From NCBI GenBank assembly GCA_050010515.1, contig JBEKKX010000022.1, forward strand, positions 1-64,000: a DNA stretch of 64,000 bases, given 5' to 3'. Of the stretch, positions 2,424 to 20,049 are shown piece after piece. This stretch comes from Candidatus Bathyarchaeia archaeon (GTDB taxonomy: Archaea > Thermoproteota > Bathyarchaeia > Bathyarchaeales > Bathycorpusculaceae). The first letter of the stretch is position 1, and each line of letters begins with the position of its first letter. The notes beneath the pieces are model-generated. The model made no database searches and had not been told where the DNA came from. It saw only the letters and a program-made list of their open reading frames with translations. The position numbers and the translations under genes are program-made.

Positions 2424-2437
2424 TTATTAGTCTCGAA
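2424..2437 (+). repeat. left att core TTATTAGTCTCGAA
   Basis: Identical to 20036-20049; about 35 bp from the integrase stop codon. Confidence 0.85.
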
Positions 2438-2471
2438 GGTCGCGTTTTTTGATTAATAAACGCCTTTTCTC

Positions 2472-3620
2472 TCATGCCTTAATCCTCCGATACAGATGCA
2501 CTCCTCCGATTTCGTCGTATTTGGTGTAGCCTTGACTAGCCAGTTTTTCAGCTTCTTCCACTGTTGAAGCTCTAGCTGTCTCCCAGTCTAAATCATTGAA
2601 AACTACCGTGTTGGTGTACTTGTCGGTGGAGTTGCTGCTTTTATGGCCTAGTTTCTGTTGAACTTCTTTCTGGGGCCTAAGCTGCTTGATTAAGCGGTGT
2701 GCAAAGCCATAGCGGAAAGTGTGAATGTGGATTAGACTAAGCCGGTCAGCTTCGCCTGGGTTCTCTCTACAAATTTTGAGACGTAAATTCTTGAATTGGT
2801 CAGTGTAGGTCTTCGGGTGTGGGCAGAAAATATACGGCTGATATTTACGGTTTAAGGATTGGATTCTTGCTATTGTGGCTTCAGGTACTTTGATTGTTCG
2901 GGGTCTGCTACCTTTTTCAGGTTGATTGATGCTGATTGTGCAGTTAGCGGTGTTAAGGTCGGACCATTTGATATGGCAAACTTCCCCGCGTCTTGCTCCA
3001 GTGTCATGTGTCGCTAAAAGGTAAGTTCCTAATCGGTGTCCTGCGGCGTTAACATATAGTTTTAATTCGTCAGGTGTTGCTATGAAGGCTTCTTTCGGTT
3101 GATAGTTGGTTTTGATTGGCTCCCAGAAAATCTTTAGCGTTTTGCAGTAGCTTTTGTAGCTGCAAACTGCTATGTATTTTTTGCTTGGTTTCTCTTTGTC
3201 GTTGTACTCGGGTTCAACTGCTAAAACGGTTTCGACTGATTCAGGATTTTTAAGGTCGGCTCCTTTTCCGATTAATCCGGCAAGCACTGAGCAGCGTACT
3301 GTTATCGTGTTGTCGCCTAATCCTCTCTTTTTCAGCTTCCAAGCGTACTCTAAGAGACTACTTTCTTTTACACCCGCAACAGTCTTGATTTCTGTTGACG
3401 GTTCCAAATTTTTCGCCTTATCCTGCAGGATTGCGCATATTTGGCTATCCTTGACATTAGTATTCTCAACATTTAACACTTGCCCATTACTAAAACGGAA
3501 ACCGCAACTTCTACATAGAAACCTCTGTGCTTTACAGCCGTCACTCAAAACTCTAAGGCCATCTTTAAAGAACTTCTCACTATGACAAGAAGGGCATTTA
3601 ATAGCGATTTGAGACTCCAA
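2472..3620 (-). CDS. tyrosine integrase with N-terminal Zn finger
   Basis: Full catalytic set: TGARRGE (R), EKG (K), HTFR, LGH, DKY; N-terminal CPSC...CRSC. Confidence 0.92.
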   Translation of the reverse strand: MESQIAIKCPSCHSEKFFKDGLRVLSDGCKAQRFLCRSCGFRFSNGQVLNVENTNVKDSQICAILQDKAKNLEPSTEIKTVAGVKESSLLEYAWKLKKRGLGDNTITVRCSVLAGLIGKGADLKNPESVETVLAVEPEYNDKEKPSKKYIAVCSYKSYCKTLKIFWEPIKTNYQPKEAFIATPDELKLYVNAAGHRLGTYLLATHDTGARRGEVCHIKWSDLNTANCTISINQPEKGSRPRTIKVPEATIARIQSLNRKYQPYIFCPHPKTYTDQFKNLRLKICRENPGEADRLSLIHIHTFRYGFAHRLIKQLRPQKEVQQKLGHKSSNSTDKYTNTVVFNDLDWETARASTVEEAEKLASQGYTKYDEIGGVHLYRRIKA

Positions 3621-3622
3621 TT

Positions 3623-3913
3623 TTAGGAGCCTCCCTTAATTTTTCGGGTTTCAAGATGGTTTTTGCCTACAATTTTCATATTACAAGAGGCACACCGGAC
3701 AGCGCCATGCGTCCGAAGTCGTTTGTTACAGTCAACACAGAAATGCTTGCCATTGAGGGAGGCACGATTTGAGAAAGTCACTATAACAATCGGCGGCTGT
3801 TTACTCCGAGCATCAACAGACTTTAGCAAGGCCTCAAGGTTGGAGAGTTTCTTTTTCAAGCTGTCAGGTGTGTAGGATTCGAGAATTTCGTTAACGCTTT
3901 CTGTTGCGGTCAA
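3623..3913 (-). CDS. small Zn-finger protein
   Basis: CVDC...CASC; TTG at 3913 overlaps the helicase stop and follows GAGGAGG. Confidence 0.65.
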   Translation of the reverse strand: MTATESVNEILESYTPDSLKKKLSNLEALLKSVDARSKQPPIVIVTFSNRASLNGKHFCVDCNKRLRTHGAVRCASCNMKIVGKNHLETRKIKGGS

Positions 3914-5925: not shown

Positions 5926-6077
5926 GGTTGTTCAGCTCCGCAAACGCCCGGGCTTTCATTAATCAGGGTTTTCGCAATTTCCCATTTCAACCGTGAGCAA
6001 ACATACCTGAATGTATCTTTGGTTATGGTTTCTTTAGTGAGATGCTTACAGCTATTACAGCAAAAATCTTTAGTCAA
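5922..6077 (-). CDS. small Cys-rich protein
   Basis: CCNSCKH...CS...C; TTG start overlaps the upstream stop, with GAGGAGG SD. Confidence 0.6.
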   Translation of the reverse strand: MTKDFCCNSCKHLTKETITKDTFRYVCSRLKWEIAKTLINESPGVCGAEQP

Positions 6078-6241
6078 TGAAAAAGCCTCCTCTGAGTTTT
6101 TGCTCTGCAAAAAAAGGTTTTTTTCCGTTGAATCTGAAGGCCATGTTTAGGCGTGTAAATTAATGTTCTTCCATCTTTAAGATTGAAGATAACACTTTCA
6201 ACATCAGCCGGATTCAGTTTTTCAAAAGGTAGCTGAAGCAA
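6074..6241 (-). CDS. 55-aa hypothetical protein (below the ORF-track cutoff)
   Basis: MLQLPFEKLNPADVESVIFNLKDGRTLIYTPKHG...; fills an operon gap and its stop overlaps the next start. Confidence 0.5.
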   Translation of the reverse strand: MLQLPFEKLNPADVESVIFNLKDGRTLIYTPKHGLQIQRKKTFFCRAKTQRRLFH

Positions 6242-6243
6242 AC

Positions 6244-6468
6244 TTAAGCATCCCCTGGCAATCGTCGCTCGCCTATTTTCCGGTTAGTTTTGGCACGCCA
6301 AACTTTGCAGCCTACCCCTCCCCCATGATTGCATGCATAATTTTTAGGGTTGAATTTGTTTTCTCGCTTACATTCAAACTCGAATTTGCAGGGATATTTT
6401 TCTGCTTCTTGAGCTTGGCAGTGTTCTTGAAGTGGTTTAAAATTGGTAGTAAATCGGTTCAATGGCAA
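6244..6468 (-). CDS. small Cys/His protein
   Basis: CKFEFEC...YACNH...C; part of the coupled operon. Confidence 0.55.
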   Translation of the reverse strand: MPLNRFTTNFKPLQEHCQAQEAEKYPCKFEFECKRENKFNPKNYACNHGGGVGCKVWRAKTNRKIGERRLPGDA

Positions 6469-6584
6469 AACCTCAAGGTCATCATCATTTTTTCGGTAAA
6501 ATCAGCGCACTTAGTCGGTTCGTGGTCGCAAGCATATTTTCCGAGTTGGTAGTTGGCACAGTTTCTAAATTCTTTACAGGTCAA
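6459..6584 (-). CDS. 41-aa Cys/His mini-protein (below the ORF-track cutoff)
   Basis: MTCKEFRNCANYQLGKYACDHEPTKCADF...; abuts both neighbouring genes. Confidence 0.5.
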   Translation of the reverse strand: MTCKEFRNCANYQLGKYACDHEPTKCADFTEKMMMTLRFCH

Positions 6585-6770
6585 TTATGGTCTCTCCCTT
6601 TCTCCAATCGGCAAAAACTGCTTACACGCTTTCCATGATGCGTGTGTTGAGTAGCCTAAACGACAATGACTAGTCGTGTACTGTGTGAAGAAAGTGCAAT
6701 TATGGCAAAACTGAGGTTTTGGCGCTTTAGGCTGCAAAAAACTTAAAAGGCTTCGATTGCTATCAATCAA
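6585..6770 (-). CDS. small Cys-rich protein
   Basis: CHNC...C...C; overlaps the upstream stop. Confidence 0.55.
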   Translation of the reverse strand: MIDSNRSLLSFLQPKAPKPQFCHNCTFFTQYTTSHCRLGYSTHASWKACKQFLPIGERERP

Positions 6771-6990
6771 TAACGGTAGTCTCCAGTATCGTGTCAGGTG
6801 CGGGGGATTGCTGGCTAACGTGCTTCTCCTGGCGGGGGGTCACGTTAGTCTTTTTAGTTTTATTGATTCTTGTAGAGTCAAAACGGTGTCCACACCTAGG
6901 ACATTTCACCGGCAGATCGACTCTTGGCTGCCATGTGTTACCACATCGGTCACACATGAGTTTTATAACTTCCTCTTTGATTGTTTGCAT
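6763..6990 (-). CDS. Zn-ribbon protein, first gene of the leftward operon
   Basis: CDRCGNTW...CPRCG pattern common in archaeal viruses and plasmids. Confidence 0.7.
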   Translation of the reverse strand: MQTIKEEVIKLMCDRCGNTWQPRVDLPVKCPRCGHRFDSTRINKTKKTNVTPRQEKHVSQQSPAPDTILETTVID

Positions 6991-7010
6991 GGTTTCTTCT
7001 ATACTGTAGA

Positions 7011-7040
7011 TTAATTTAAATCTTGTTGTATCTGATACAA
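7011..7040 (-). promoter_or_regulatory. TATA-like box with adjacent palindromic operator for the leftward operon
   Basis: TTTAAATT 23-30 nt upstream of ATG 6990; perfect palindrome TTGTATC-T-GATACAA at 7026-7040. Confidence 0.55.
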
Positions 7041-7071
7041 TAATTAGTGAGGTAGGTAGGTAAGAGTAACA

Positions 7072-7227
7072 ATAGTTAACCGCTATTATAGTTAACCGCT
7101 ACAAAATATAGCGCATAACTACTCTTTTTAAACAATTTTAGCGTTTAACTAAACCTAAGCGAGGATATACTAAAACGTAAGAGAGGATATAGTAAAACGT
7201 AAGAAAAGCATCTATTAGCGTCTATTA
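7072..7227. repeat. three paired direct repeats
   Basis: ATAGTTAACCGCTA x2 (7072, 7088); GAGGATATA[C/G]TAAAACGTAAGA x2 (7161, 7183); GC[A/G]TCTATTA x2 (7208, 7218). Confidence 0.8.
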
Positions 7228-7479
7228 CTTTTTATGTGTGGGGGGTTGCTGGCTAGTATATTTTTTCCATGGCTGAAGGTGCGCGCGCACTTTTACAAAA
7301 GAACTTTTTTCTTATGAGGGAATCGGGAGATTATCAGAAAAGCAGAAAGCAAGGCCACGACTTACGACTCAATTTTTATCACCTTCTCCCGTGTTCCCTT
7401 TCCTCCGTTTCCTTTCTGAAAAACTTGTGACATATGAAGGAAAAACCACTTTAAAACAGAAAACCCACATAATTGGTTG

Positions 7480-7565
7480 GGGCAATCCAGAAGGCTTAGT
7501 ACCCGAGTGAAAAAGTCTATTCAGCTGAGCAGACTTTCTGCGACAGTTGTAAGGGGCTTAGTTAC
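7480..7565 (+). repeat. long inverted repeat, left copy (86 bp)
   Basis: Reverse complement of 11752-11834 except for an extra GTC at 7515-7517. Confidence 0.95.
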
Positions 7566-7632
7566 TCTTTCTCATGATGAACATCGGTTATCAAGTTAAT
7601 CGTATGATACAATAGGAGAGAACCCTTTTCTC

Positions 7633-7642
7633 TTTTTCTATT
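7633..7642 (+). promoter_or_regulatory. element motif TTTTTCTATT (first of 8 exact copies)
   Basis: Also at 7911, 8766, 9569, 10877, 11887, 14934 (+) and 14787-14796 (-), each just upstream of a start codon. Confidence 0.7.
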
Positions 7643-7655
7643 GAGGTCTTTAGAC

Positions 7656-7886
7656 TTGGTTAAGAAGAAAAACGATGTAAAGAGCGCGTTTTTAGTTTTG
7701 GTGTCCATGATCTTATTTGTTTTAGGTACAACACTTCTTTATGGTGCGCTGACACTTCATTCGATTAGTCTGATGGGCTATACACTTGCCTTTTCCACTG
7801 TGCCTCTATATCATATGTTGACGTTCGACCTTGGTGCAATCTTTTTCTTTTCTGGATTAATCACTCTAATTTATGCGTTTACTTAG
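7656..7886 (+). CDS. small two-TM membrane protein
   Basis: Two hydrophobic segments; TTG 7656 follows GAGG. Confidence 0.65.
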   Translation: MVKKKNDVKSAFLVLVSMILFVLGTTLLYGALTLHSISLMGYTLAFSTVPLYHMLTFDLGAIFFFSGLITLIYAFT

Positions 7887-7933
7887 CCACCGAAAACACC
7901 GCTAAACCTTTTTTTCTATTAGAGGTTTCACCA

Positions 7934-8419
7934 TTGAGTTATCGTGGTAATCAAAAGGGTAATTATGGCAATCAAAAAAGGGGTCATGTAGGGTTTTTGG
8001 GTAGAAAAAAGAAGCCGAAACAACCGAAAGAAGAGGACGTTGTTTATTTCAGAAACGCGGATCCTCCAGAGCAAAAGATACAACCTGAAACTGTGGCATG
8101 GCAGAACAGACCGTTAGATCAAGGCGTAAGTCTTTTTCTTGTTAGACCAACGACTTTCACGGTTCCAGGTGCAAAAACGGTTTTGCCTTCAGACCTGACA
8201 CTGCAAGAAAAGAACGCTTATGAAATTGCGCTTTTATCCGAAAGTCAAAAACTGGGTCTAGAAGCTGTATCAGGTGACAGCTCAGTAAGAAAATATCGAA
8301 TCCTCAAAACAGTCGACCAACTGCCAACAGATAAACCCTTGAGTTTTAGTGATTATCAGTTTATCGGAAACATCAAAAATAGCTTACGGAGTCACGGCTA
8401 TACAGTTTTGCCTCAATAA
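7934..8419 (+). CDS. hypothetical protein with basic MSYRG N-terminus
   Basis: ORF with SD; N-terminus shared with the 8790 protein. Confidence 0.7.
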   Translation: MSYRGNQKGNYGNQKRGHVGFLGRKKKPKQPKEEDVVYFRNADPPEQKIQPETVAWQNRPLDQGVSLFLVRPTTFTVPGAKTVLPSDLTLQEKNAYEIALLSESQKLGLEAVSGDSSVRKYRILKTVDQLPTDKPLSFSDYQFIGNIKNSLRSHGYTVLPQ

Positions 8420-8500
8420 CTCTAAGTCAAGAGAATTCTCTACACTTTCTGAAGATATACTTCGTATTCTACTCCCATTTAGTTTTCTTTTGATGATTCA

Positions 8501-8761
8501 ATGGGTAGCAAGTCAAAAGGAATAGGCATTTTATTCTTACTCCTTAGCGTCTGTTCGTTCTTAGTCAATTTTCACGTTTGGACGCCTTTTCTAATCGGAA
8601 AAATAACGTTTCTTTGGGATCCACTCAGTTATTTTAGCGCACGAATAGTTGGTAAAATCGTATTATTTGGGTCATCGCTCATTACATATTTGAACTATAT
8701 TTTTTCGTTGTTTTGGTCAGCATTTCTTTTCTTTATTGGTTTGATCTTGATTTCTCATTAA
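8501..8761 (+). CDS. small membrane protein
   Basis: Hydrophobic, 2-3 TM segments. Confidence 0.65.
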   Translation: MGSKSKGIGILFLLLSVCSFLVNFHVWTPFLIGKITFLWDPLSYFSARIVGKIVLFGSSLITYLNYIFSLFWSAFLFFIGLILISH

Positions 8762-8789
8762 ACCATTTTTCTATTGAGTGATTTGAAAC

Positions 8790-9551
8790 TTGTCATATAG
8801 AGGTAAACCTAAAGGCTCTTACGGTCAACAGAGGCATGGAACAAGCACTTTTAAAAGTTTTGGCAAGGGAAAACCAAACGCTGATACGTTGAAAGCGCTC
8901 AGGTCTTTTGAGCACACTTCAGATCAACATTCTGCTAAAGACCTTATGAAGTTCGCGGAGATAACGCCTACCGTCATTGTGTACTTGCAAGCATGGAGAG
9001 GCATAAGCAACAGTGAAATGAAAAGAATCATGGAGAGCAAAGGCGATAAGGCTAAAGCTGAAAAATTGGCTCTGATTGCACGTCGACGGGGTTCTGCCAA
9101 ACTTATGATTCAGGATAACAGCAAAAAAGGCAAGGTTTCCCGACATCATTTCAAGATTGTTAAAAAGAAAGCTACTAAAGAACCTGAGAAGGCTAAAGAA
9201 ATCGTTAAAGAGGCTGAAAAGGAACTTGCAAAAGCAGAGACTAAAATCATAAAAGAAGAGTCTCATTTACCCTCTGAAAAAGAGATTCTTGACCGAGCAC
9301 AGCAACTTTATCAAAAAGAGAACTTTAAAGGCAAATACGAAGATAGCGCGGTTGAACAACTACCAACAAAAGGCGAACTTAGCGAAGAGGGCTATCTGCA
9401 AGCTGCCAAACTTGATTTAATGACGAAAACAGATACAAAGGCGTCAAGAGATGTCATGGATTACGTCGAAGGCATAAAAAACGAGCTAGAAAAAATCGGT
9501 TTCACGGTTGAACCGCTCGCGGGTTTTGACGTCACAGACCTAAAATATTAA
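8790..9551 (+). CDS. Lys-rich hypothetical protein with MSYRG N-terminus and probable coiled coil
   Basis: 253-aa ORF with a K/E-rich helix. Confidence 0.75.
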   Translation: MSYRGKPKGSYGQQRHGTSTFKSFGKGKPNADTLKALRSFEHTSDQHSAKDLMKFAEITPTVIVYLQAWRGISNSEMKRIMESKGDKAKAEKLALIARRRGSAKLMIQDNSKKGKVSRHHFKIVKKKATKEPEKAKEIVKEAEKELAKAETKIIKEESHLPSEKEILDRAQQLYQKENFKGKYEDSAVEQLPTKGELSEEGYLQAAKLDLMTKTDTKASRDVMDYVEGIKNELEKIGFTVEPLAGFDVTDLKY

Positions 9552-9592
9552 TCCCTTTTTTCTTTTGTTTTTTCTATTAAAGGCGTCTAAAA

Positions 9593-10864
9593 ATGAAACT
9601 GAAGAAACTTAGCGTAATAATCGTTCTTTCGGTCTTAGTGTTATCTTGTTTTTGCTTTTCTCAAATTAACTTAACTCACGCTCAATATGTCAATGATGCG
9701 ATAACAAGTACGGTCACTGGGTTATCTACTCCGTATTGTGTAGCTATAACGCCTAACGGTCAATACGCTTATGTCAGTAATGAGTATCATAACACCGTTT
9801 CAGTTATTAGCACATCCTTAAACTCAATAGTTGCAACTGTTACGGGATTTTCAAACGCTGTCGAAGGGTTAGCCGTCACTCCCGACGGAAACTATGTTTA
9901 TGTTTGCAATTTTGACGCTAACAACGTTTTAGTGATAAGCACTAGCTCCAATACGGTAACAGCCACAATAACGGGGTTAGATCAACCTTACAGCATAGCT
10001 ATTTCAGGTCAATACGCTTACGTTGCTAACGACGGGGATAATACGGTTTCAGTGATAAGCACTAGCTCTAACACGATTGTTGCTACAGTGACGGGTTTAG
10101 GAAACACGCCTAACGGTATCGCCATTAACGGAAACTATGCGTATGTGGCAAACGCAGGGAGTAGCACCGTTTCAGTTATCAGCACATCCTCAAACTCGGT
10201 TGTTGCTACCATATCAGGGTTAGATGATCCTCAAGGAATAGCTATTACTCCCAACGGAAACTATGCCGTTGTATCAAATTTTGAGGGTAACGACTTAACC
10301 GTTATCAGTATAGCTTCTAACTCGATTGTTGCTACAGTGTCAGGGTTAGATAATCCCGATTGGGTAGCTGTAACTCCGAATAGTCAATACGCTATCGCTG
10401 TCAATAGCGCTACTCCGAGCACAGCGTCCGTTATAGATTTAACTTCAGATACCCTTGTTGACACCGTATCGGGATTAAATGGGCCTCAAGGAATAGCCAT
10501 TACTCCAAACGGAAACTACGCTTATGTAACAAACTGGGGAGTAAGTTTTGACGGAACTACCGTTTCAGTAATTAGTATCAGCTATGTTTCAGAGCCGAGC
10601 CCTACGCCTTCGAGCCCTACACCTTCACCTAGTCCTGGTGGTGGTTCAGGGAGTTATCCTACACCTTGGCCCAGTTCAGAGCCGACTATTAGCCCTACTC
10701 CCGTCGTTACGCCTATCGTTACCAATGTTAAAAGTTGGTTTACGAATACTTTGTTATTTGAGGTTATAGGTGTTATCGCATTTTTTGGGCTCTTATCTTT
10801 CGTAGCTTTTTCTGTCACGCATAAGCATCCTGCAAGGCGTCGTCATTCAAAACGTCGTCACTAA
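9593..10864 (+). CDS. YVTN/YncE-type beta-propeller surface protein
   Basis: Signal peptide, about 7 repeats of P.GIAITPNG.YAYV.N...TVSVIST, Pro/Ser/Thr linker, C-terminal TM and basic tail. Confidence 0.9.
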   Translation: MKLKKLSVIIVLSVLVLSCFCFSQINLTHAQYVNDAITSTVTGLSTPYCVAITPNGQYAYVSNEYHNTVSVISTSLNSIVATVTGFSNAVEGLAVTPDGNYVYVCNFDANNVLVISTSSNTVTATITGLDQPYSIAISGQYAYVANDGDNTVSVISTSSNTIVATVTGLGNTPNGIAINGNYAYVANAGSSTVSVISTSSNSVVATISGLDDPQGIAITPNGNYAVVSNFEGNDLTVISIASNSIVATVSGLDNPDWVAVTPNSQYAIAVNSATPSTASVIDLTSDTLVDTVSGLNGPQGIAITPNGNYAYVTNWGVSFDGTTVSVISISYVSEPSPTPSSPTPSPSPGGGSGSYPTPWPSSEPTISPTPVVTPIVTNVKSWFTNTLLFEVIGVIAFFGLLSFVAFSVTHKHPARRRHSKRRH

Positions 10865-10901
10865 CCCTTTTTCTTGTTTTTCTATTAGAGATGTAATTAC
10901 A

Positions 10902-11720
10902 TTGAACGTTCAATTAAAATTTAAAAACAAAAAAGCGATTGTGGCTATTGCATTTCTGCTTTGTTTAAGCGCTGCTTTTCTTAACCTCTCGTTAGTTCAC
11001 GCTACCACTGATTCCACACCAACATCAACAAGCTCTTTCAACGATTGGAACGGTGAAGTTTACTTTTGCCCTATTATCGCAACTAGCTCAGGACCGTTGC
11101 AATCTGTTGGCGTCGAGTTAGGCGCTGTATCGGGAAATGTAGAAACCGCTCTATACAGCACGTTTAGCGGTACTCAAATTAGCGGTTTAATCGGTGAATC
11201 TTCTTCGACTGTTGCTACTTCAGGATGGGATGATTTAGCTATACCTAGTGACTATTCGATTGTTCCTGGACAAACCTATTACTTAAGTGTACAAGTGGAC
11301 AATGTTAACACGGTCATATACGAGACTGGTTCTGTAAACATGTATGAAATCTATAACTATGCTTATGGCAGCTTCCCAACTTCTACGCCTTCAGTCACGG
11401 TTACAAGTACATGCCTTTGTATGAGAATGACTTATGGCAGTACCGTTCAAGCTACGCCTACACCGACACCTTATCAAGCTCCAACACCGACGCCTTACGG
11501 CACTCAACCGACACCTTATCAATATCCAACACCGACTCCAACAACTTACAATTATGGGCCTACTCCAACACCTGCAACCGTTTATGTGCTCGGTTACGGT
11601 TTTAGCGACACTGATCTTCTAATTATTGTTGTGGCTATCGCTATTATCTGTGTTTGCGGTGCTTATGTCGGCTGGTCTATCAATCAAGGCAATAAACACA
11701 AAGGCAGAAAACACCATTAA
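10902..11720 (+). CDS. membrane-anchored surface protein
   Basis: Signal peptide, beta-rich domain, PTPTPY linker, C-terminal TM and basic tail. Confidence 0.8.
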   Translation: MNVQLKFKNKKAIVAIAFLLCLSAAFLNLSLVHATTDSTPTSTSSFNDWNGEVYFCPIIATSSGPLQSVGVELGAVSGNVETALYSTFSGTQISGLIGESSSTVATSGWDDLAIPSDYSIVPGQTYYLSVQVDNVNTVIYETGSVNMYEIYNYAYGSFPTSTPSVTVTSTCLCMRMTYGSTVQATPTPTPYQAPTPTPYGTQPTPYQYPTPTPTTYNYGPTPTPATVYVLGYGFSDTDLLIIVVAIAIICVCGAYVGWSINQGNKHKGRKHH

Positions 11721-11751
11721 AGAATAGCCCTTTTTCCCTTTTTTAAAAAAT

Positions 11752-11834
11752 GTAACTAAGCCCCTTACAACTGTCGCAGAAAGTCTGCTCAGCTGAATAT
11801 TTTTCACTCGGGTACTAAGCCTTCTGGATTGCCC
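11752..11834 (-). repeat. long inverted repeat, right copy (83 bp)
   Basis: Reverse complement of 7480-7565. Confidence 0.95.
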
Positions 11835-11910
11835 ACATTGGTGTATCTATTTTCCCGGACGCATGTATTATTTAGGACATTTCCCTTTTTTCTATTGTTA
11901 GGTGTTACGA

Positions 11911-13641
11911 TTGAAACTCAAGAAACTCTTAGTTATCTCTCTAATTACGCTACTCTGTCTCTCAGTTTTAGTTAGTCTTTCAACGATTCCAATGGCTCAC
12001 GCTCAGAGCTATAATATTCAATCTATTCAAGGCCCTATCACTGGAGAGGCTGATAGCGGAACAACCGTAACGTTCACGCTTAACTCTGCACCTATTAGCG
12101 GTGACCTTTTGATTGCATGTATTGGAGGTACGGGTTCTGCAGGTGAAAGTATATCGAGTATCACGGAAACGGGAGTTACATGGACGCCTCAAGAAACTAA
12201 TACTGCTAATACGGGTTTTGTGACAGCTATTTGGGCTGGAGTAGTAGGTTCTGGAGCTGTAAAAGGAGGCACCGTTACTTTTAGTCAAACATTAAACGGT
12301 GGTACTTTCGCGTATGTTGACGAGTATTCAGGGCTTTTGACAACTGGGTTTTTAGACAAAATTAATCTTGCGTCAGGTACAAGTACAACGGCTGCCACTG
12401 GAACAACAGCCACAACAAGCGATGCTAACGAGCTAGCTATTGGTGTCATATTTGGTGGCGAGGTCTTTAGCTCTCAAACTAACGGATTCACGCCTTACGG
12501 CAATACGGTGTATGACTATGACGCTATGGTTTATTTGTCACTGATTGTTAGTCAAACGGGAGCTCAAAGCTGTAGCATGACTCAAGCAAACGGCTATACC
12601 TTTCAAGGTTGTATTGCCACTTTTATCGCTGCTGCTGTAGTTACTACCGCTCAAATTATTTTCACTTCTAACCCGACTGGGAGCGGATTCATAACTGTTA
12701 ACGGAACGGCAGAGACAACGCCTTACACAATCGCCTCTGCTAACATAGGTGACACTTACGACATTTCAGCGAATACTCCAGCAAACACAGTGACGAATGA
12801 AACCCAATATGTTTTTACTCAATGGGCTTCGACTTCGATAGGTACTAAAACAACCGCGAGTTATGCTTATGTTGTGCCTGCAGTTGGAGAGACTGTTACA
12901 GCGTCTTTTACTGAGCAATACGCTATAGCTCCGTCCTCTGATTCTGATTCTTCTCTTACGCCTTCGACTGTGACCTGGGTTAACTCTGGAGGCAATCAGC
13001 TTTTCAGTTACACGGCTAACACTGGGTATGCTATAGCAACCGTTATGATTGACGGTGTACCGTTTTCGATAACTGGGAGTTATCAGTTTTCCGATGTCGT
13101 AACCTATCACACTATTTTAGTCACTTCGATAAGTACAGCAACACCGACAGCGCCGCCTAGTGGATCAACAGGGGGAGGTACTTATCCGAATCCTCCGACT
13201 GGAACTTTAACCGTGAGTAATGTAGCTCTCGGATATTTCAGCGTGAATCAAACAGGGTCAGCTAGTCTAACGCTAACTTTTACTGATAACTCTTGGACGG
13301 TTGAAAGCGTAACTTTCGGAACTCCGTTTAGCACTTGGGTTTCTGCCAATGTGCCGTCGGGTCAATTTACGGCTGGAGTGTTGCATGTACCTATAAGCTA
13401 TGCAGTTCCTTCTTACATGACTACTGGAATATTCACTGGAACGGTCACGGTAGTTGTGCAGGATGCTTGTGGAACAACCTATACGGGTACTTCTAAAATC
13501 ACGATTACCATTTTGCCGACTCCCGTAACTAACATCATGGGCTATATACACGCTCACCTTTTGCTTGTTTGTGTAGCTGCCATTATCTTTGTCTTAGCTA
13601 TTTGTGGCTTAATTGCTACGTTCTCAAGGCGCCGCCATTAA
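11911..13641 (+). CDS. large Ser/Thr-rich adhesin-like surface protein
   Basis: MKLKK signal peptide like the 9593 protein (TTG 11911 preferred over 11902), beta-rich domains, C-terminal TM and RRRH. Confidence 0.8.
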   Translation: MKLKKLLVISLITLLCLSVLVSLSTIPMAHAQSYNIQSIQGPITGEADSGTTVTFTLNSAPISGDLLIACIGGTGSAGESISSITETGVTWTPQETNTANTGFVTAIWAGVVGSGAVKGGTVTFSQTLNGGTFAYVDEYSGLLTTGFLDKINLASGTSTTAATGTTATTSDANELAIGVIFGGEVFSSQTNGFTPYGNTVYDYDAMVYLSLIVSQTGAQSCSMTQANGYTFQGCIATFIAAAVVTTAQIIFTSNPTGSGFITVNGTAETTPYTIASANIGDTYDISANTPANTVTNETQYVFTQWASTSIGTKTTASYAYVVPAVGETVTASFTEQYAIAPSSDSDSSLTPSTVTWVNSGGNQLFSYTANTGYAIATVMIDGVPFSITGSYQFSDVVTYHTILVTSISTATPTAPPSGSTGGGTYPNPPTGTLTVSNVALGYFSVNQTGSASLTLTFTDNSWTVESVTFGTPFSTWVSANVPSGQFTAGVLHVPISYAVPSYMTTGIFTGTVTVVVQDACGTTYTGTSKITITILPTPVTNIMGYIHAHLLLVCVAAIIFVLAICGLIATFSRRRH

Positions 13642-13955
13642 ACCTCTTTTCTTTTAAGTTTCTTTTTCTTATGGAGTGGCCAAAGGGTTTCTTCAGCCTT
13701 AATTTCTTCACGTATTTTGTCAACAACATCTTTCCCTAAAGCATTTTCAACACGCTCAGAAGCTGAAAGTGTAGATTTATCTGAACCCCCATGAGGAACT
13801 TGTTTGAACTCGTCGTGGAGATACCCTATGACGGTGGATCTTTCAAGACCTATAACTTCTACAATTTTCTCAATTATCTCGTTTTTATGTTGATTCTCAA
13901 AGCCAGAATGCACTTTGCAGGCTACTTCCAGTCCATGTATCAATGCTTTGCCCAT
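13638..13955 (-). pseudogene. HTH fragment resembling the ParB-like protein's HTH region
   Basis: KIVEVIGLERSTVIGYL versus EIVAKIGLSHTTVDRYY in 18977-19933. Confidence 0.4.
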
Positions 13956-14125
13956 TTGGGCTAAACATTGGTTGGAATCCCTTTTGACCTTGTCATCGGA
14001 GCTCTCGTTGGTGCGTAACGCATGCGGTACTTTTGAAATAGTTTTAGAAATGCAAAAACAAGTTTGCTTTTCAGTTATGGGAAAGTATCCATGCTTGAGT
14101 GTTTTAGAAGCTGAAAACCTTCAAG

Positions 14126-14773
14126 TTAGATTTCTTTTTCTCTTTCAGCTTTGTCAGAATCAACGGTTTTCCAGTTGGTTGCAGCATAACTGTTTCGTGG
14201 TATAGGTGCGTAAGAACCTGCTTGGTGTCGTTGTTCTTGCATGGACGCATAACTGTTTCTTGGGAGTCCTGCATAACTTACAGTTTTCAGCGTTAGCAAA
14301 TCCTGAAACAACAGGTTTACGTCCCGATTGTTTAATGTGGCCTCAAAACCTTTTGGAACAACCGGCTGTGGCTGCCATTTCTTTCCTCTCTCCAAATCGT
14401 AATCCGCCTTGAAATCATAGAACTCTGGGGTAATAAAAACGGGTGCCTCAATCTTAACGTCATTCTGATTTTTCAAATAAGTTATGCGAGCTCTAAACTG
14501 AGGCTCTCGGTTGTAGTGAACTTTGTATCTCCGATAACTTGTTACGCCTTGAAACCCTCTTCCAGCTAAATGTTTTTCTACTGAAACAACAGCGGTTTCT
14601 TGTTGATAATCCTGCCAGATATGCCTTGCAGCGACAAGCAACACATTATTTTTTAAATCACTCCAATCTACTATTCTATCCTCATAGACCGTGAGGACGA
14701 CAACAATTTTAAATTTGTGAGCCTTCCTTTTTCCAGGTCTTAGAATCTGTGCGTACACCGAGTAGTCTGGCAT
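14126..14773 (-). CDS. hypothetical protein with a C-terminal SYAxxPRNSYA duplication
   Basis: 215-aa ORF with upstream motif and GGAG SD. Confidence 0.7.
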   Translation of the reverse strand: MPDYSVYAQILRPGKRKAHKFKIVVVLTVYEDRIVDWSDLKNNVLLVAARHIWQDYQQETAVVSVEKHLAGRGFQGVTSYRRYKVHYNREPQFRARITYLKNQNDVKIEAPVFITPEFYDFKADYDLERGKKWQPQPVVPKGFEATLNNRDVNLLFQDLLTLKTVSYAGLPRNSYASMQEQRHQAGSYAPIPRNSYAATNWKTVDSDKAEREKEI

Positions 14774-14852
14774 AATTTATTTCTCCAATAGAAAAATAAT
14801 AGAACCTATGTTTGGATGGCTTAAGGGTTTTTAACTCAAAAAGGCATACAAG

Positions 14853-14870
14853 TCCGTTGCCTGCAACGGA
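14853..14870. promoter_or_regulatory. palindromic operator-like site between divergent genes
   Basis: TCCGTTGC-CT-GCAACGGA. Confidence 0.5.
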
Positions 14871-14951
14871 TACCGAACTGCTTCAGAACTAGCCTATCAT
14901 TTTAGAGATTATCCATGCGTTACTAAGCAAACATTTTTCTATTGAACGCTT

Positions 14952-16043
14952 ATGTCAGCAATAGAGAAAGAACTAGGTGAAGAGGTTGCTAAGTTTCTAA
15001 GGGCTATCTCTCCGTCTAACCCTGAAGCACCGGATAAGCTGGGTCCTTCCGCTCAAACATATTATCCTGGGCTAGGTTGGTTTCAGCGTTACCTTGTTGA
15101 ACAATCCCTTTCTAAAGAATCTGCTTTCCCTAGAATCAAGTCAATCCATCTTTTCCTAGTTGCTGTTAAGGCGGATGCAAAAATTGAGAACTCACTCAAG
15201 CGTTGTTTTCCTGATCGAGAGCTGCTTAAGACTTTTGCAACTAGCCTTCTTAAAGAGAACAAGGCGCCTAAAACTGTTAGGTCTTATGTCGGCTCAGTTC
15301 AATCTCTTGCTAAATACTTCGACATTCCAATTACTACAGCCTATAGCGATCTGCCTCCGGCTATTGCAGAGAACGAAAAATATCCCTGGAGTATTGAACA
15401 AGTCGGAGACTTCATTAAGTCTTTTGATTCACCGATGTATAGATGCCTTGGTGTTTGGTTCATTCAAACGGGTCTAAGCAATTACGATCTGTTGCACATG
15501 CCTTATAGCAAAATAAAAGAGCAGTACGAGAATAGCATCAACCCGTTCTGTCTCAATCTTGTGAGGCATAAAACGCGTAAGTTTGAAATCAAGTTTAGGG
15601 CCTTCATCGGTACTCTTGGCATTCGGTACTTTCGCACGTACTATGAGAGTTTGGATCATGCACTCTCGGATGATGATTTGATTTTTAATGTTAGCTCTGT
15701 AGCTGTTGAAAAGTATTTTGAGCGAAGGGCTAAAGAGTTTATATCTAAAGACAAACCGAAAGAGCGCAAGAAGAAAAGCAACTTAACCGTTAACCCCGTT
15801 GCAACCGTAGACGACCCTATTACCGCCACGTTGAAAAAGAAACGGAATCCAATGTGTCCTAGTTCTCTGCGAACTGGGTTTAGAACTTTCTTGAGTGACG
15901 GCAAGGTTACTAACTCAATCATTGAGTACCTCATGGGCCACAACCTAACAAGTGATCTGGAAAAGACATACACCAACAAGTCAGATGATTCATGGAGAAA
16001 GACTTGGCAAGAGTTTGAACCTCTATTAACCTTTCAGGTCTAA
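14952..16043 (+). CDS. second tyrosine recombinase-family protein with atypical active site
   Basis: APKTVRSY, QTGLS, RHKT, SSLRTGF, EYLMGH, KTY. Confidence 0.85.
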   Translation: MSAIEKELGEEVAKFLRAISPSNPEAPDKLGPSAQTYYPGLGWFQRYLVEQSLSKESAFPRIKSIHLFLVAVKADAKIENSLKRCFPDRELLKTFATSLLKENKAPKTVRSYVGSVQSLAKYFDIPITTAYSDLPPAIAENEKYPWSIEQVGDFIKSFDSPMYRCLGVWFIQTGLSNYDLLHMPYSKIKEQYENSINPFCLNLVRHKTRKFEIKFRAFIGTLGIRYFRTYYESLDHALSDDDLIFNVSSVAVEKYFERRAKEFISKDKPKERKKKSNLTVNPVATVDDPITATLKKKRNPMCPSSLRTGFRTFLSDGKVTNSIIEYLMGHNLTSDLEKTYTNKSDDSWRKTWQEFEPLLTFQV

Positions 16044-17032
16044 GCAATCTAGGGGGAGCTGGCTTCAAAAATCAGGGAAGTTGAGTAATTTTGTTAAAAA
16101 GTGTACAGCAGGCGGTACACTTTCTGACCGTATTGCATACTCACTTCTTAAATTTGACCATGAAACTCAAGATAAACTTGCTAAAGCTATCATAAATTAG
16201 CGGTAAGTCCAGTTGAGTTCAGTGCGGTAAAGAGTTTCTTGGTTTGGATTTGTGAGGCTTGTATCTCTCACCTGCCTACCATGTCGAACTTGGCGGATTT
16301 TATACTGTACTTGGTTCTGGAAAAATAACTTTTGTCTTTTCTCTATGGAAACGTGCACGTATATAACGTTTTTTCAGTTCAAAAAAATTTTTGTGAGTGA
16401 AACATACATCAAACGCTCTGTTTGTTTAGCTATAACTAAGCTAACACGTTTTACCATAGATAGAAAGAGCATACCCCCCAAACAAAATAGATTCGCACCC
16501 GCGATTTGCTTTTTCCTAGCGCTAGGTTAACAGTATTAGTGTTTCTCAGGGGCATCGCATAAAAAAATGTAACGCTGCCATATATAAGCCCGTCCATGCT
16601 TGAGGTACACGATTCAGGGATTTCAGCGTTATTTTTTGCTGTCAAAAACATAATCTCTATGGGAAACCAACATAGCAATAATGTAAACATAACATAAACC
16701 CTTACTTTTGGGGTTTTGTAATGCATAAATCCAGCTTTTCCATGAAAAGAATCTATTCAGTGGTAATTTAACCTATGGTGAAATAGCTAAATGTTGCGGT
16801 TATGTGTAAAATTGTGAGAAAAACGTAATCTTTGCCCTGAAAAAGTACGGAATCCGAGCCTAAATTAACCTTCTTTTGGGTTACTGTTTTCATTGTAACG
16901 CATAATTAGCCCAAAGAAAGATTGCTTTTTCAGTGGTTTTTACCCACTTACAGCGCCGAAATATCCTAGTCCATTTTGGACAGACCTATCCTGATTCTGT
17001 GAATAGTTATTTTTCTTATAGAAGGTAAGTAT

Positions 17033-17668
17033 ATGACAAATGAAATTGCAAAGTTTCCGTCTTGTGTCCGTGAGTTTATGGCTGAATTAAGCGGTTACAT
17101 TAAAGCAGACACAACAGTTGACAAATACTTGAAAACAAGCGATCCAGTAAGCATCAAGGATGGAATAGTGCGGATTAACATAAAGCATGAAGTTGCGGAA
17201 AGTGCTGCTAACTATAATCAATTTATCAAGGATTTTAAGGCTGCAAAACAGAAATATCATGCCTTGTCAAGCTACACGGACACCGTTGTACATGTTAAAC
17301 CTGTGCCAATTGAAGAGACAACAGTAAAATTCATGCCTAATTATTATATGCAAGGCGTCCACATTGAAATTTTGCTGAAAGACCTGGTGCTGGATAAGCT
17401 AGGCTATTTTTTTAACCCTGATTCCGAGTTATCTATACCGGATAGCATACAGATACTCCGAAATTGTGGGATGTCCGATATGGTCATCATGCGTAGCTTG
17501 GGTAGTCCAAGAACTACGTTTAATCGTTACTGTAAAATCTTAGATTCTAAAGGGGCCATGGGAGAAACCAAAATGGACACTAAAGAAACCAAAGAGGACA
17601 CGGCAAAAACCATTTTGGACACGTCTCAAACTGAGCAAAAAACCGAGTTAACCACTGTACCAAACTGA
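17033..17668 (+). CDS. hypothetical protein with probable HTH
   Basis: GMSDMVIMRSLGSPRTTFNRY helix-turn-helix-like segment. Confidence 0.65.
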   Translation: MTNEIAKFPSCVREFMAELSGYIKADTTVDKYLKTSDPVSIKDGIVRINIKHEVAESAANYNQFIKDFKAAKQKYHALSSYTDTVVHVKPVPIEETTVKFMPNYYMQGVHIEILLKDLVLDKLGYFFNPDSELSIPDSIQILRNCGMSDMVIMRSLGSPRTTFNRYCKILDSKGAMGETKMDTKETKEDTAKTILDTSQTEQKTELTTVPN

Positions 17669-17902
17669 AAGGAAGAGTGACCAAAACGGACAACCCTGTT
17701 TTACCTTGCCAAACACCAAAATTCAACGGCTGCAAAGGTTGTCAAGCTGTCAACTGTTGCACACGACGCTGTAGCCACTAAAAATTAGTTCTTTTTCTAA
17801 TAGGGATAAAACCCTGAGAGGCTGGGGATCGCTTTAAATCCGCTCAGCCGATAACTCACGGATTGATGAAAAAGCGGTTCCCAGTGTTTTTTTTTTGCAA
17901 GT

Positions 17903-18976
17903 TCACTGTTTAAGCACCTTAGCCTCATAGTCGTCAAGAAACTCGGAGCTTAAGTTTGGGGTACTGTGTTTTTTCTTGAAATCAGCATACTCGGCAATCA
18001 AATTAGCTATTGCATAGTCAATGTGCAAATGAGGCTTTGCTTTTATGATCTCGGTTTTTTTTCCGAAATCCAATAGACAACGTAAAAACACTGTGTCAAC
18101 AAGCCGGTTTATTCTAGGTCTTGAATTGCCAAAATATTTTAAGGTGGCTCTAGCTTGCCTAACCTTACGCGCTAACGTGTCTCTAAACTTCAGGTCCGAG
18201 ATTCCGTATTTATCGCAAATAAAAGAAGAGTAGCTTAAGACGCCTTTGTTGTCGTTAGCGAAGCTATCAACAACCCTCCCCAATTTAGATTTTCTCAGAG
18301 GCAGGTCTTGCTGGTTGAACAAGTTATCAATGTCAGCAACAGGTAGCCTCCGCACGTAGCCCTGGCTTAAACGGTAAAAGTAGGCGTCATTGTTGGCAAA
18401 GCGGCTTTTGGTAAATTTGCTTGCTTCTTGTGGATTTGTCTTTTGAAACTCGGATAAATCAACGTCATTATTAACAAGTAGCTTGTGAATTTCGGTGCCC
18501 TTTAACGTGCAGCCTAAACCGTCAGTAAAACTTAACATGCTTGAGGGTTGAAAGGTAACGTCGCGGTCTAAACTATCATCGAAGGGTATGCTTTCGTCAT
18601 AGGAGGCGCCGACGCCGACCACTAAGCCGCAAGCCAGGCAAACTTTTTCTCCGTCGTCAACCTTATCCGTGAGAGTTTCACACAAACACTCAGGGCAAAC
18701 AAGGTCCAACTGATCGACCCTAACGACGCCTCCCATATTCGACGCTAACCATGCGTCAAGAATCCCTTGATATTTAGCTAACTCATTTTTGCTGTCAAGG
18801 CCTAGTACTTTTCTTAAATTCTCAGGATCAGTAATGTTTTCTCGATACTTAAGCTGGAAAAGCTGTTGATGCAGTTTCATGTCCGGGAGAAGTGCCAGAT
18901 ATTTCTCTTCTGAAAGACCGCTATTCCTAACGTAAGCCAATATTTGTTCAGTGTTTCCGTTTAGTTCAACCAACAT
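17903..18976 (-). CDS. divergent TFB/TFIIB-like protein
   Basis: C-x2-C-x15-C-x2-C ribbon with GEKVC..CGLV matching the host TFB spacing, then PSSMLSFTDGLGCTL resembling host PTSYSVHDKGLSTAI. Confidence 0.65.
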   Translation of the reverse strand: MLVELNGNTEQILAYVRNSGLSEEKYLALLPDMKLHQQLFQLKYRENITDPENLRKVLGLDSKNELAKYQGILDAWLASNMGGVVRVDQLDLVCPECLCETLTDKVDDGEKVCLACGLVVGVGASYDESIPFDDSLDRDVTFQPSSMLSFTDGLGCTLKGTEIHKLLVNNDVDLSEFQKTNPQEASKFTKSRFANNDAYFYRLSQGYVRRLPVADIDNLFNQQDLPLRKSKLGRVVDSFANDNKGVLSYSSFICDKYGISDLKFRDTLARKVRQARATLKYFGNSRPRINRLVDTVFLRCLLDFGKKTEIIKAKPHLHIDYAIANLIAEYADFKKKHSTPNLSSEFLDDYEAKVLKQ

Positions 18977-19933
18977 TTACCATCGCTCTTTTGCTGTTTT
19001 AAGAAGCTCTTGCAGGGTACCTTCTTGCTCAATGAAATCCAATAAGACCTCAACCGCGACAGTGAGACATTCGTTAAGTCTTTTCTGCTTAAACTCTTGT
19101 GAAGGGTCAACCGCTAAGTTATAGACAGCATGTTTAAAATCATCGGGTAAATCGGCTTTGGCGTCACTGATTAGCTTTTCAAGTGTTTGCTGCTCTTCGT
19201 TATTTTCAGCGATTAAAGCGTCAATCTTCTCTTCAGAGGTAGGCTCTTTGGTTTGCCGTTCCCAGTTGGGAACGGGATTATCGTTAAGTAACTCAGGTTC
19301 AACCGGTAAAACCGTTGACGTCAACGGTTCTTTTTCAGTGAAAGTATTCACGTGAATACTTTGTAGTTCTTTAACTTCCGTTGATTCTGCAGGTTGTTGT
19401 GTGGCTTTGAGAGCTCTTGCCTTGCCGCTTGCGATTCCAAGTTGAGAATGTTCTTGGTCTTTCAGTGGTTTCGGATAATAGCGGTCAACGGTTGTGTGAC
19501 TTAACCCGATTTTGGCCACAATCTCTTTAACGCTTAAGTGTCCTTCAGTGGCAAGAAATACTATGTTTTTCTTGAGTTCTTCAGAGGTTCCTTTTCTCCG
19601 ATTGAAGTTAATTGCTGTGCTGTAAAGTACCCTATCGACTTCAGTAATGCAATTTTTCAGAATAATCTTAGTGTATTGAGCGTTAGGGCATTCGGTTAAT
19701 CGATGAAAACCGTCAACAAGCGTCACGCCGTCAGCCATATAGTAGATTGGAGTGATAGGGCCTAGGTTCTGTATGCTTTCTGCAAGGCTGTAACCTTCTT
19801 CATCATCGACAGCAACGATAGTGAAAACTTTGTCGCCGTTAACAGTTTTTTCTTGGATTGTTTTAAACTGAGAATGGTTCTCAGGGGTACTAATTTTTTC
19901 ATTGCTTTCGCTAATAGATTTTTCACTGATCAA
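18977..19933 (-). CDS. ParB/Srx N-terminal domain plus HTH protein
   Basis: LAESIQNLGPITPI, LVDGFHRL, NFNRR and an HTH. Confidence 0.8.
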   Translation of the reverse strand: MISEKSISESNEKISTPENHSQFKTIQEKTVNGDKVFTIVAVDDEEGYSLAESIQNLGPITPIYYMADGVTLVDGFHRLTECPNAQYTKIILKNCITEVDRVLYSTAINFNRRKGTSEELKKNIVFLATEGHLSVKEIVAKIGLSHTTVDRYYPKPLKDQEHSQLGIASGKARALKATQQPAESTEVKELQSIHVNTFTEKEPLTSTVLPVEPELLNDNPVPNWERQTKEPTSEEKIDALIAENNEEQQTLEKLISDAKADLPDDFKHAVYNLAVDPSQEFKQKRLNECLTVAVEVLLDFIEQEGTLQELLKTAKERW

Positions 19934-20035
19934 TTTTAAAACCTCTACAACTGTTCTTATTTAGATAAAATTGAGAACCAAAAAAGGAAAAAAGGGAAGG
20001 TTGTGTTTTGTGCGGGTGATATCTCCAATAAAGAC

Positions 20036-20049
20036 TTATTAGTCTCGAA
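20036..20049 (+). repeat. right att core TTATTAGTCTCGAA
   Basis: Identical to 2424-2437. Confidence 0.85.

Follow-up and report, generated by a model that had tools for sequence, protein, structure and literature searches.

An integrated element of a Bathyarchaeia archaeon encodes a remodeled TFB-like protein and carries a recurrent 10-nt motif upstream of its genes

The DNA analyzed here is a 64,000-nucleotide window (positions 1 to 64,000 of contig JBEKKX010000022.1, assembly GCA_050010515.1) from a Candidatus Bathyarchaeia archaeon. It contains an integrated element of 17.6 kb, on which an open reading frame (ORF) on the minus strand encodes a protein of 357 residues that resembles the transcription initiation factor TFB/TFIIB; we call it the TFB-like protein. 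The ORF had been predicted from the bare sequence, and it is present with every string quoted for it in place. The original prediction also held that the gene belongs to a mobile element, and the attachment-site repeats at the two ends, together with empty sites elsewhere, bear this out. In three congeners, G339 (C13), G364 (C26), and G354 (C5), the sequences flanking positions 2424 and 20049 of the window are contiguous, being only 14–17 nt apart. Because these congeners carry an uninterrupted site, the DNA between the repeats is an integrated element. Coordinates of the element, the gene, its domains, and the associated motif are collected in Table 1.

The TFB-like gene occurs once in its genome. 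Pairwise comparison with six homologous loci gives dN/dS values of 0.12–0.21 at dS of 0.7–1.8; these low ratios identify it as a real gene under purifying selection. There are 20 close homologues (42–100% identity), several of them in Candidatus Bathyarchaeia metagenome-assembled genomes (MAGs), and an exhaustive HMMER scan extends the family to 61 representatives at 50% clustering. Full-length members are found in 5 of 301 sampled Bathyarchaeia genomes. Databases name them either “hypothetical protein” or “TFIIB-type zinc ribbon-containing protein.” A tblastn search with the protein returned no relative among 50,697 phage and archaeal-virus records and no match in plasmid collections, and a scan of IMG/VR with the family alignment likewise returned no relative. 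Two members have peculiarities of their own. P0037 (759 aa) contains an intein with a LAGLIDADG domain near the ribbon–linker region. P0047 (278 aa), one of those named as a TFIIB-type zinc ribbon-containing protein, lies on a 9.9-kb contig of a Bacteroidota-labeled MAG, a placement that probably reflects misbinning and not a true presence in bacteria.

The clearest link to TFB is the zinc ribbon. Residues 94–119 (CPECLCETLTDKVDDGEKVCLACGLV) have the same C-x2-C-x15-C-x2-C spacing as the canonical TFB of the host, as had been predicted, and pairwise BLASTP aligns the two ribbons at E = 1e-5 with 14 of 27 positions identical. The score of the TFB-like protein against PF08271 is 17 bits, under the 29-bit cutoff; across the family, 39 of 64 members match this model (best E = 3.1e-12), some of them above the cutoff. 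A phmmer search of PDB sequences with the single protein gave chance-level matches only. When a profile of 64 family sequences was compared with the PDB, the ribbon of Pyrococcus furiosus TFB (1pft) came up at E = 1.1e-8, followed by yeast and human TFIIB and Brf2 at E = 0.006–0.02; non-TFIIB ribbons scored ∼5 orders of magnitude worse than the TFB ribbon. The ribbon part of the same profile matches ORFs of ∼310–350 aa in 268 further Bathyarchaeia genomes, which are taken to be host TFBs. By these sequence comparisons the ribbon is of the TFB type, and the four-Cys, TFIIB-type N-terminal B-ribbon of canonical TFB/TFIIB is present.

The resemblance continues beyond the ribbon. In a profile–profile comparison (hhalign) of the family with an alignment of 30 Thermoproteota TFBs, residues 86–306 align with TFB residues 8–183 over 166 columns (E = 9.6e-10, probability 96.5). 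This alignment reproduces both pairings that had been proposed by eye, PSSMLSFTDGLGCTL with PTSYSVHDKGLSTAI and ICDKYGI with LSDKVYI. Taken without the ribbon, residues 226–306 align with TFB 106–183 weakly (E = 0.02–0.035) but colinearly. Directly after the ribbon, residues 140–161 align colinearly with TFB 66–87, the linker alone scoring E = 0.11. Within this post-ribbon segment, the core from 133 to 158 is the most conserved stretch of the family, above the ribbon itself, being free of gaps and having a mean top-residue frequency of 0.59. The structure model leaves residues 121–159 extended and of low confidence, with predicted local distance difference test (pLDDT) values of 49–75 in the segment. 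In TFB, the ribbon and post-ribbon parts contact RNA polymerase. The post-ribbon segment of the TFB-like protein may correspond to the B-reader/B-linker, a resemblance that is weak when the segment is taken on its own.

A first structure model, built from 16 sequences, reached a pLDDT of 64.8; a second, built from 64, reached 87.4 with a predicted TM score of 0.50. The model places in order an N-terminal helical domain (∼9–80), the ribbon, the extended segment, an alpha/beta insert, a helical domain (240–340), and a terminal helix. A VIA-align search against 48,161 PDB representatives assigned the helical domain a cyclin fold. Its best row is the human TFIIB core (5wh1_A; Z 10.1, root-mean-square deviation [rmsd] 3.4 over 94 residues), in which residues 240–339 superpose on 111–208, the first cyclin repeat. 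The first repeat of Pyrococcus woesei TFB (1ais_B) gave Z 7.9 and Brf2 (8ity_V) Z 8.9. Two yeast TFIIB entries matched over longer spans: 7o4i_M, from a preinitiation complex, at Z 8.9 (141–338 against 80–221), and 3k1f_M at Z 8.7 (83–331 against 15–214; 137 residues, rmsd 12.8 across domains). By their titles, rows 1–31 are cyclins, cyclin–CDK pairs, TFIIB or Brf complexes, or the Rb pocket, with one exception, an MCM-ORC entry whose chain we take to be ORC6. The first model gave a similar cyclin result. The single C-terminal cyclin repeat that had been suspected from the sequence is therefore confirmed by fold, and the second repeat is missing, as had also been claimed: only one helix extends past residue 340, and the protein ends 17 residues on.

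Two further parts of the protein have no place in that scheme, and the original prediction had overlooked the insert and the helix-turn-helix (HTH)-like look of the N-terminal extension. The alpha/beta insert between linker and cyclin consists in the model of helices at 174–189, three strands at 193–212, and helices at 213–238; it appears as a gap on the TFB side of the hhalign alignment, and its length varies across the family. The extension had been put at ∼90 aa, and 93 residues do precede the first Cys, compared with 15 in the host TFB. Its helices at 30–45, 51–58, and 63–80 are modeled at pLDDT >90. In the first model, residues 25–98 matched winged HTH domains in VIA-align (MgaSpn, ScpB, and DeoR; Z 5.2–5.8), and an ESM Atlas structure search with residues 1–92 returned mainly sigma-70 region 4/LuxR HTH domains at TM ∼0.5, under the bar of the tool. 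Among the 64 family members, three match Sigma70_r4_2 (PF08281; best E = 8.6e-4) and three match GerE, and member P0055 matches TIGR02937 in its region 4 end (E = 9e-4). No scan of the family gave a signal for sigma-70 region 2. We treat these matches as leads toward a DNA-binding, HTH-like domain.

In its wide sense, which takes in Brf, Rrn7/TAF1B, and Rap94, a TFIIB-like protein has a B-ribbon, a linker, and then a repeat-1 cyclin fold, and the TFB-like protein has a ribbon, a linker-like segment, and such a fold in that order. Two defining features of canonical TFB are absent: it has one cyclin repeat instead of two, and with repeat 2 it lacks the C-terminal HTH that reads the TFB-recognition element (BRE). 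We therefore file it as TFIIB-like in the wide sense and not as a canonical TFB. No family member (0/64) matches PF00382, the Pfam model of the TFIIB cyclin, and beyond the ribbon the family is undetectable as TFB by standard models.

The second notable property of the element is a repeated 10-nt motif, TTTTTCTATT. Its clustering, which had been noted from the sequence, is real: eight exact copies fall in 7633–14943, compared with 54 in the whole 2.38-Mb genome (38 for a reversed-pattern control). The relaxed pattern TTTTTCTWWTR matches 13 times within the element and 82 times outside it (0.74 against 0.035 per kb), and overall the element is ∼21–57x enriched for the motif. After each of the eight exact copies comes a purine, then usually a Shine-Dalgarno (SD)-like GAGG or GGAG, and a start codon 8–15 nt past the motif; no such sequel follows the 46 exact copies elsewhere in the genome. 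In a set of 21 exact sites, which are not independent of one another, a purine follows 19. The divergent genes at 14952–16043 (+) and 14126–14773 (−) are each led by an exact copy, and the motif therefore also occurs outside the putative structural genes. The first of these is a second, divergent integrase-like gene (phrog_1, E = 8e-6) and the other a 215-aa gene. A motif variant and SD also lead the 211-aa gene, whose homologue in a related locus (L013) is preceded by TTTTTCTTTT and an SD.

A further variant heads a conserved non-coding unit that runs toward the 3′ end of the TFB-like gene from the opposite strand. At the matching place, related loci L001, L002, L006, and L013 have the exact motif. 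Units of ∼95–110 nt with a T-run end and a conserved ACTCA(C/A)GG-like box occur in L001 at 4178–4291 (−), in L002 at 11045–11163 (−), in L013 at 425–544 (−), and in L010 and L012. A small RNA is one possible identity for such a unit, an antisense regulator another. Rfam has no match in 17600–17950, and RNAalifold applied to six motif-led units found no consensus structure. Between the 211-aa gene and this unit sits a 34-aa ORF with seven Cys (17677–17781, +), with a GTG start and an upstream SD, that is kept in L001 and L002.

The motif also recurs beside related genes. The scan covered 11 of the 13 related loci, since L011 and L014 have no downstream DNA; one of the 11, L005, is the window itself. 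In 7 of the 10 non-self loci, the strand opposite the TFB-like gene bears the exact 10-mer no more than 1.2 kb downstream of that gene (L001, L002, L003, L006, L013, and, with three copies each, L010 and L012), which upholds the predicted co-occurrence of motif and gene. L002 and L006 are near-identical in sequence and so are not independent. Among the other loci, L007 and L008 offer only 86–115 nt of downstream sequence, and L009 has no copy in 6.2 kb. The TFB-like proteins of the motif-positive loci are 54–81% identical (dS 0.7–1.8), and the motif is a selected, conserved cis-element that travels with the TFB-like gene. In one distant member, G261, the 9-mer core occurs four times, once as part of the exact 10-mer. 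Near distant members (L087–L090 and L060), no clear alternative repeat was found, apart from four copies of TTTTCTATT at 713–1468 of L088.

Upstream, a ParB-like gene abuts the TFB-like gene without a gap, the pair is kept in L001, L002, and L003, and the two form an operon. A TATA-like TTTTATCTAAATAA lies ∼20 nt before the SD, upstream of the ParB-like start, and no motif is present at the operon, an arrangement like that of the host's own genes. An operon that has a TATA-like box and lacks the motif fits a layout of early factor and late promoters. In L003 the gene order is a 691-aa gene, a homologue of 3623–3958, the ParB-like gene, and the TFB-like gene, which matches a circular permutation of the element in the window. 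The 691-aa gene holds the position that corresponds to the largest protein of the element (671 aa; 3910–5925, −), and tblastn found no similarity between the two. The 671-aa protein itself has no match in Pfam, PHROGs, or NCBIfam.

Elsewhere in the element, proteins of 81 and 86 aa with hydrophobic helices are encoded at 7641–7886 and 8501–8761 (+). Two paralogous basic proteins beginning MSYRG, both with TTG starts, are encoded at 7934–8419 and 8790–9551 (+). Beside these proteins, 9593–13641 encodes secreted proteins with C-terminal anchors. Judged by its sequences, the gene set from 7641 to 13641 may be akin to the structural modules found in spindle-shaped or enveloped viruses of archaea. 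Farther right, ∼1 kb without a long ORF (16044–17032) may hold an origin or a non-coding region.

Table 1. Positions of the element, the TFB-like gene and its parts, the motif sites, and genes used for comparison (window coordinates)
Feature	Position	Strand	Basis or remark
Integrated element of 17.6 kb with a 14-bp direct repeat, TTATTAGTCTCGAA, at each end	2424–20049	.	repeats at 2424–2437 and 20036–20049
Tyrosine integrase, left end of element	2472–3620		PF00589, E 7.7e-18
Exact motif TTTTTCTATT, 8 sites	7633, 7911, 8766, 9569, 10877, 11887, 14934; 14787	+ (first seven); − (14787)	
Motif variant TTTTTCTTAT, then SD and ATG of 211-aa gene (17033–17668)	17010–17019	+	
Motif variant TTTTTCTAAT and ∼95-nt conserved non-coding unit ending in T10	17792–17897	+	
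TFB-like protein gene, 357 aa	17903–18976	−	ORF list
Single cyclin fold, residues 240–340	17957–18259	−	equivalent to TFB cyclin repeat 1
Alpha/beta insert, residues 170–238	18263–18469	−	no TFB counterpart
Post-ribbon segment, residues 121–169	18470–18616	−	B-reader/B-linker-like
TFB/TFIIB-type zinc ribbon, residues 92–120	18617–18703	−	C94, C97, C113, C116
N-terminal helical domain, residues ∼25–88	18713–18904	−	HTH-like
ParB-like/HTH gene	18977–19933	−	phrog_2159, E 1.9e-10; weak HTH matches
Canonical host TFB, 312 aa	40894–41832	+	comparison only, outside element

We interpret the TFB-like protein as a strongly diverged, element-borne member of the TFB/TFIIB superfamily that serves as an initiation factor or activator for element genes, a reading to which we assign a probability of roughly 0.5. 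Its parts are not equally firm. The original prediction of a TFB-like factor stands as far as derivation from TFB is concerned, given the ribbon, the reader/linker-like segment, and the single first-type cyclin repeat, and the protein probably binds RNA polymerase as a TFB-derived factor. That it is also the reader of the motif, the other half of the prediction, is doubtful. The mechanism that we envisage would begin with joint transcription of the ParB-like and TFB-like genes from an ordinary promoter of the TATA-plus-SD kind at the element's border. The ribbon and linker would then dock on the host RNA polymerase in the fashion of TFB; this docking, and with it a role in initiation, we infer from the conserved parts. 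Since the BRE-reading second repeat is missing, DNA targeting would have to come from the N-terminal HTH, the lone cyclin repeat, or both, possibly with host TBP. In this way, the ∼10 transcription units that have TTTTTCTWWT-purine just upstream of the SD would be served by an initiation factor or activator specific to the element.

Several observations weigh against this interpretation. Outside the ribbon, the sequence match to TFB fails to reach significance (E = 0.02–0.11), and the ribbon score of the TFB-like protein itself (17–21 bits) falls in the range of ∼10 small, unrelated zinc-ribbon ORFs in this genome. VIA Z scores below ∼13 are common for helical domains, by the tool's own caution, so we place weight on the uniformity of the VIA list and on its colinearity with the sequence alignment. 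Foldseek gave no match at E ≤ 0.001 (PDB with either model; BFVD), and its ranking alone is informative: the first PDB rows are TFIIB chains (7zs9_M, probability 0.84; 7o4i_M, probability 0.90 over 265 columns; E = 0.16–0.21), TFIIB chains make up at least 6 of the first 15 rows, the weak rows include vaccinia polymerase-complex chains that are presumably Rap94, and the first BFVD row is a Mimivirus TFIIB (E = 6.8e-3). As for the motif, it occupies positions −24 to −15 relative to the start codon and immediately precedes the SD. Among 983 host ORFs, the SD peaks at −14 to −8 and TATA-like hexamers are spread over −62 to −30; judged by this layout, the motif is off the canonical TATA distance and may lie inside transcripts. 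Distant family members (27–37% identity; G300, G131, and G317) have no motif cluster. Finally, shared ancestry can explain why motif and gene co-occur in related elements, and the co-occurrence fits equally well with another conserved element protein as the reader. The ParB-like HTH protein of the same operon is an equally good candidate.

What kind of site the motif marks bears on the same question. Upstream of the 21 exact sites, no TATA box or BRE was found conserved at a fixed distance. The one position that stands out is 37 nt before the motif, where 17 of the 21 sites, which are not independent, have a T. At several sites a TATA-like string spans roughly −42 to −33; were this a weak TATA box, the motif would fall within the 5′ untranslated region (UTR). 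We rejected the motif as a canonical TATA box, for which the transcription start ∼25 nt downstream would fall inside ORFs and remove the SD sites. We also rejected it as an intrinsic terminator, since the divergent pair at 14787/14934 has no upstream gene and the CTATT half is invariant. Its geometry is compatible with a promoter-proximal or initiator element, with a pyrimidine–purine step at the 3′ edge, and equally compatible with an operator or a 5′-UTR element.

It is useful to contrast the protein with known members of the superfamily. It shares with canonical TFB/TFIIB the C-x2-C-x15-C-x2-C ribbon, a conserved segment at the reader/linker position (P-x-S … G-L-x-T), and a repeat-1 cyclin, in equal order and spacing. 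It differs in its added ∼90-aa HTH-like head, in a ∼70-aa alpha/beta insert before the cyclin, in lacking the second cyclin repeat and thus any BRE-reading HTH, and in belonging to a family that is carried sporadically on mobile elements. Another precedent is Sulfolobus TFB3, which available descriptions present as a truncated TFB that keeps the four-Cys ribbon, lacks the C-terminal DNA-binding HTH, and activates a dedicated gene set together with TFB1 and TBP (PMC6101594). The TFB-like protein might by analogy be a co-activator whose ribbon docks on RNA polymerase and aids preinitiation complex formation by host TFB and TBP without selecting promoters. The BRE-reading repeat is likewise absent here, and the host has partners to offer, namely two canonical TFBs (the second on contig C7) and two TBPs. 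The two proteins diverge, as far as TFB3 has been described, in that TFB3 is chromosomal and has a C-terminal coiled-coil in place of the cyclin core, whereas the TFB-like protein is element-borne and has one cyclin domain and an HTH-like head. These domains suggest DNA contacts of its own, and we regard a purely co-activating role as unlikely, if the best placed of the alternatives.

A second alternative dispenses with RNA polymerase altogether: the TFB-like protein would be an ordinary DNA-binding regulator, or a replication or partition accessory of its ParB-like neighbor, and the motif an operator, 5′-UTR element, or terminator remnant served by other factors. The strict operon would suit this, as would L003, in which the pair follows the 691-aa gene, just where the 671-aa gene of the window would lie. 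Cyclin folds also occur in origin-recognition proteins, and the MCM-ORC entry among the VIA rows is a case in point; weak ribbon scores are common in unrelated ORFs, and the motif is T-rich and abuts SD sites. Yet the ribbon is specifically of the TFB type, ∼5 orders of magnitude above any non-TFIIB ribbon in the PDB, ribbon, linker, and cyclin stand in TFB order and spacing, and at the divergent pair the motif has no upstream gene to terminate. We consider this alternative, taken as a whole, improbable.

At the opposite extreme, the protein might be a single-polypeptide, TBP-independent promoter-specificity factor, in which the sigma region 4/LuxR-like HTH or the cyclin would read TTTTTCTWWT while ribbon and linker load RNA polymerase and open the DNA; we hold this out as a long shot. 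Phage late sigma factors such as T4 gp55, which are minimal, encoded by mobile elements, and direct host RNA polymerase to a short promoter-proximal element, offer a functional analogy only. They belong to a different protein superfamily, and the sole link is a weak resemblance of the N-terminal HTH to sigma region 4. Least probable of all is an RNA polymerase-directed inhibitor or competitor, with ribbon and linker filling the TFB site to damp or reprogram host transcription and no positive role at the motif: archaeal viruses reportedly do target host RNA polymerase with repressors such as ATV ORF145/RIP (PMC5123050), and here ribbon and linker are most conserved while the DNA-reading half of TFB is missing, but a simple plug would have no use for a conserved cyclin repeat and an HTH-like domain, and an integrated, apparently tolerated element speaks against strong shut-off.

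Returning to the reading as an initiation factor or activator, the claim of an undescribed system was too strong, since TFB homologues are annotated in archaeal viruses and the truncated TFB3 has been characterized. According to the portions of the literature at hand, TFB homologues are annotated in some rudiviruses, in Aoguangviridae, and in the Asgard viruses JinchiV1, PBV300, and Baiyanviruses (PMC13700489; PMC10768690; bioRxiv 10.1101/2020.01.16.907410). Like the TFB-like gene, they are carried by archaeal mobile or viral genomes and are presumed to exploit host RNA polymerase. In those accounts they are annotated simply as TFB, and it is by annotation and sequence searches that the TFB-like family is set apart from them. 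Because neither the tblastn search of phage and archaeal-virus records nor the IMG/VR scan found a relative, we regard the family as separate and much more diverged. The terms TFB and TFIIB are absent from a survey of Bathyarchaeia viruses (PMC10848311), and the indexed literature at hand that joins Bathyarchaeia, virus, and TFIIB contains nothing beyond work on RNA polymerase subunit evolution. Among eukaryotic viruses, the poxvirus proteins Rap94 and VITF-3 are described, in the parts of the sources used here, as atypical TFIIB-like factors for stage-specific promoters (PMC8119876, PMC12917281). They too embed virus-encoded B-ribbon, B-reader, and B-cyclin modules among other domains; in contrast, they serve a virus-encoded polymerase in the eukaryotic cytoplasm and pair with TBP-like partners, whereas the presumed target here is host archaeal RNA polymerase. 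Only a shared TFIIB-like fold is claimed, and no further homology. The architecture of HTH-like head, ribbon, linker, insert, and one cyclin is unlike that of TFB3, the viral TFBs as annotated, or Rap94 and VITF-3.

To our knowledge, all known archaeal viruses and plasmids depend on host RNA polymerase, and the means by which they impose temporal or private gene programs are largely unknown; viral TFB genes have been annotated and, as far as we have seen, not dissected. The locus described here offers a compact test case, in which a TFB is cut down to its polymerase-docking half and one cyclin repeat, a putative DNA-binding head is added, and a sharply defined 10-nt element stands before ∼10 genes. 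If the link between protein and motif is true, the TFB scaffold would be re-targetable in the manner of bacterial sigma factors, and the system would open a way to study how promoters are recognized when there is no BRE, and possibly no TATA or TBP. If TBP-independent reading in particular is true, a family of Bathyarchaeia elements would have a private late-gene program, the functional equivalent, in archaea, of what phage late sigma factors provide, on a TFB chassis. If the link is false, a TFIIB-like architecture that is new and unannotated remains. In either case, the gene marks a family of integrated elements in uncultured Bathyarchaeia. Overall, our analysis indicates that this element carries a stripped-down, remodeled TFB relative, through which it may steer host RNA polymerase to its own genes.

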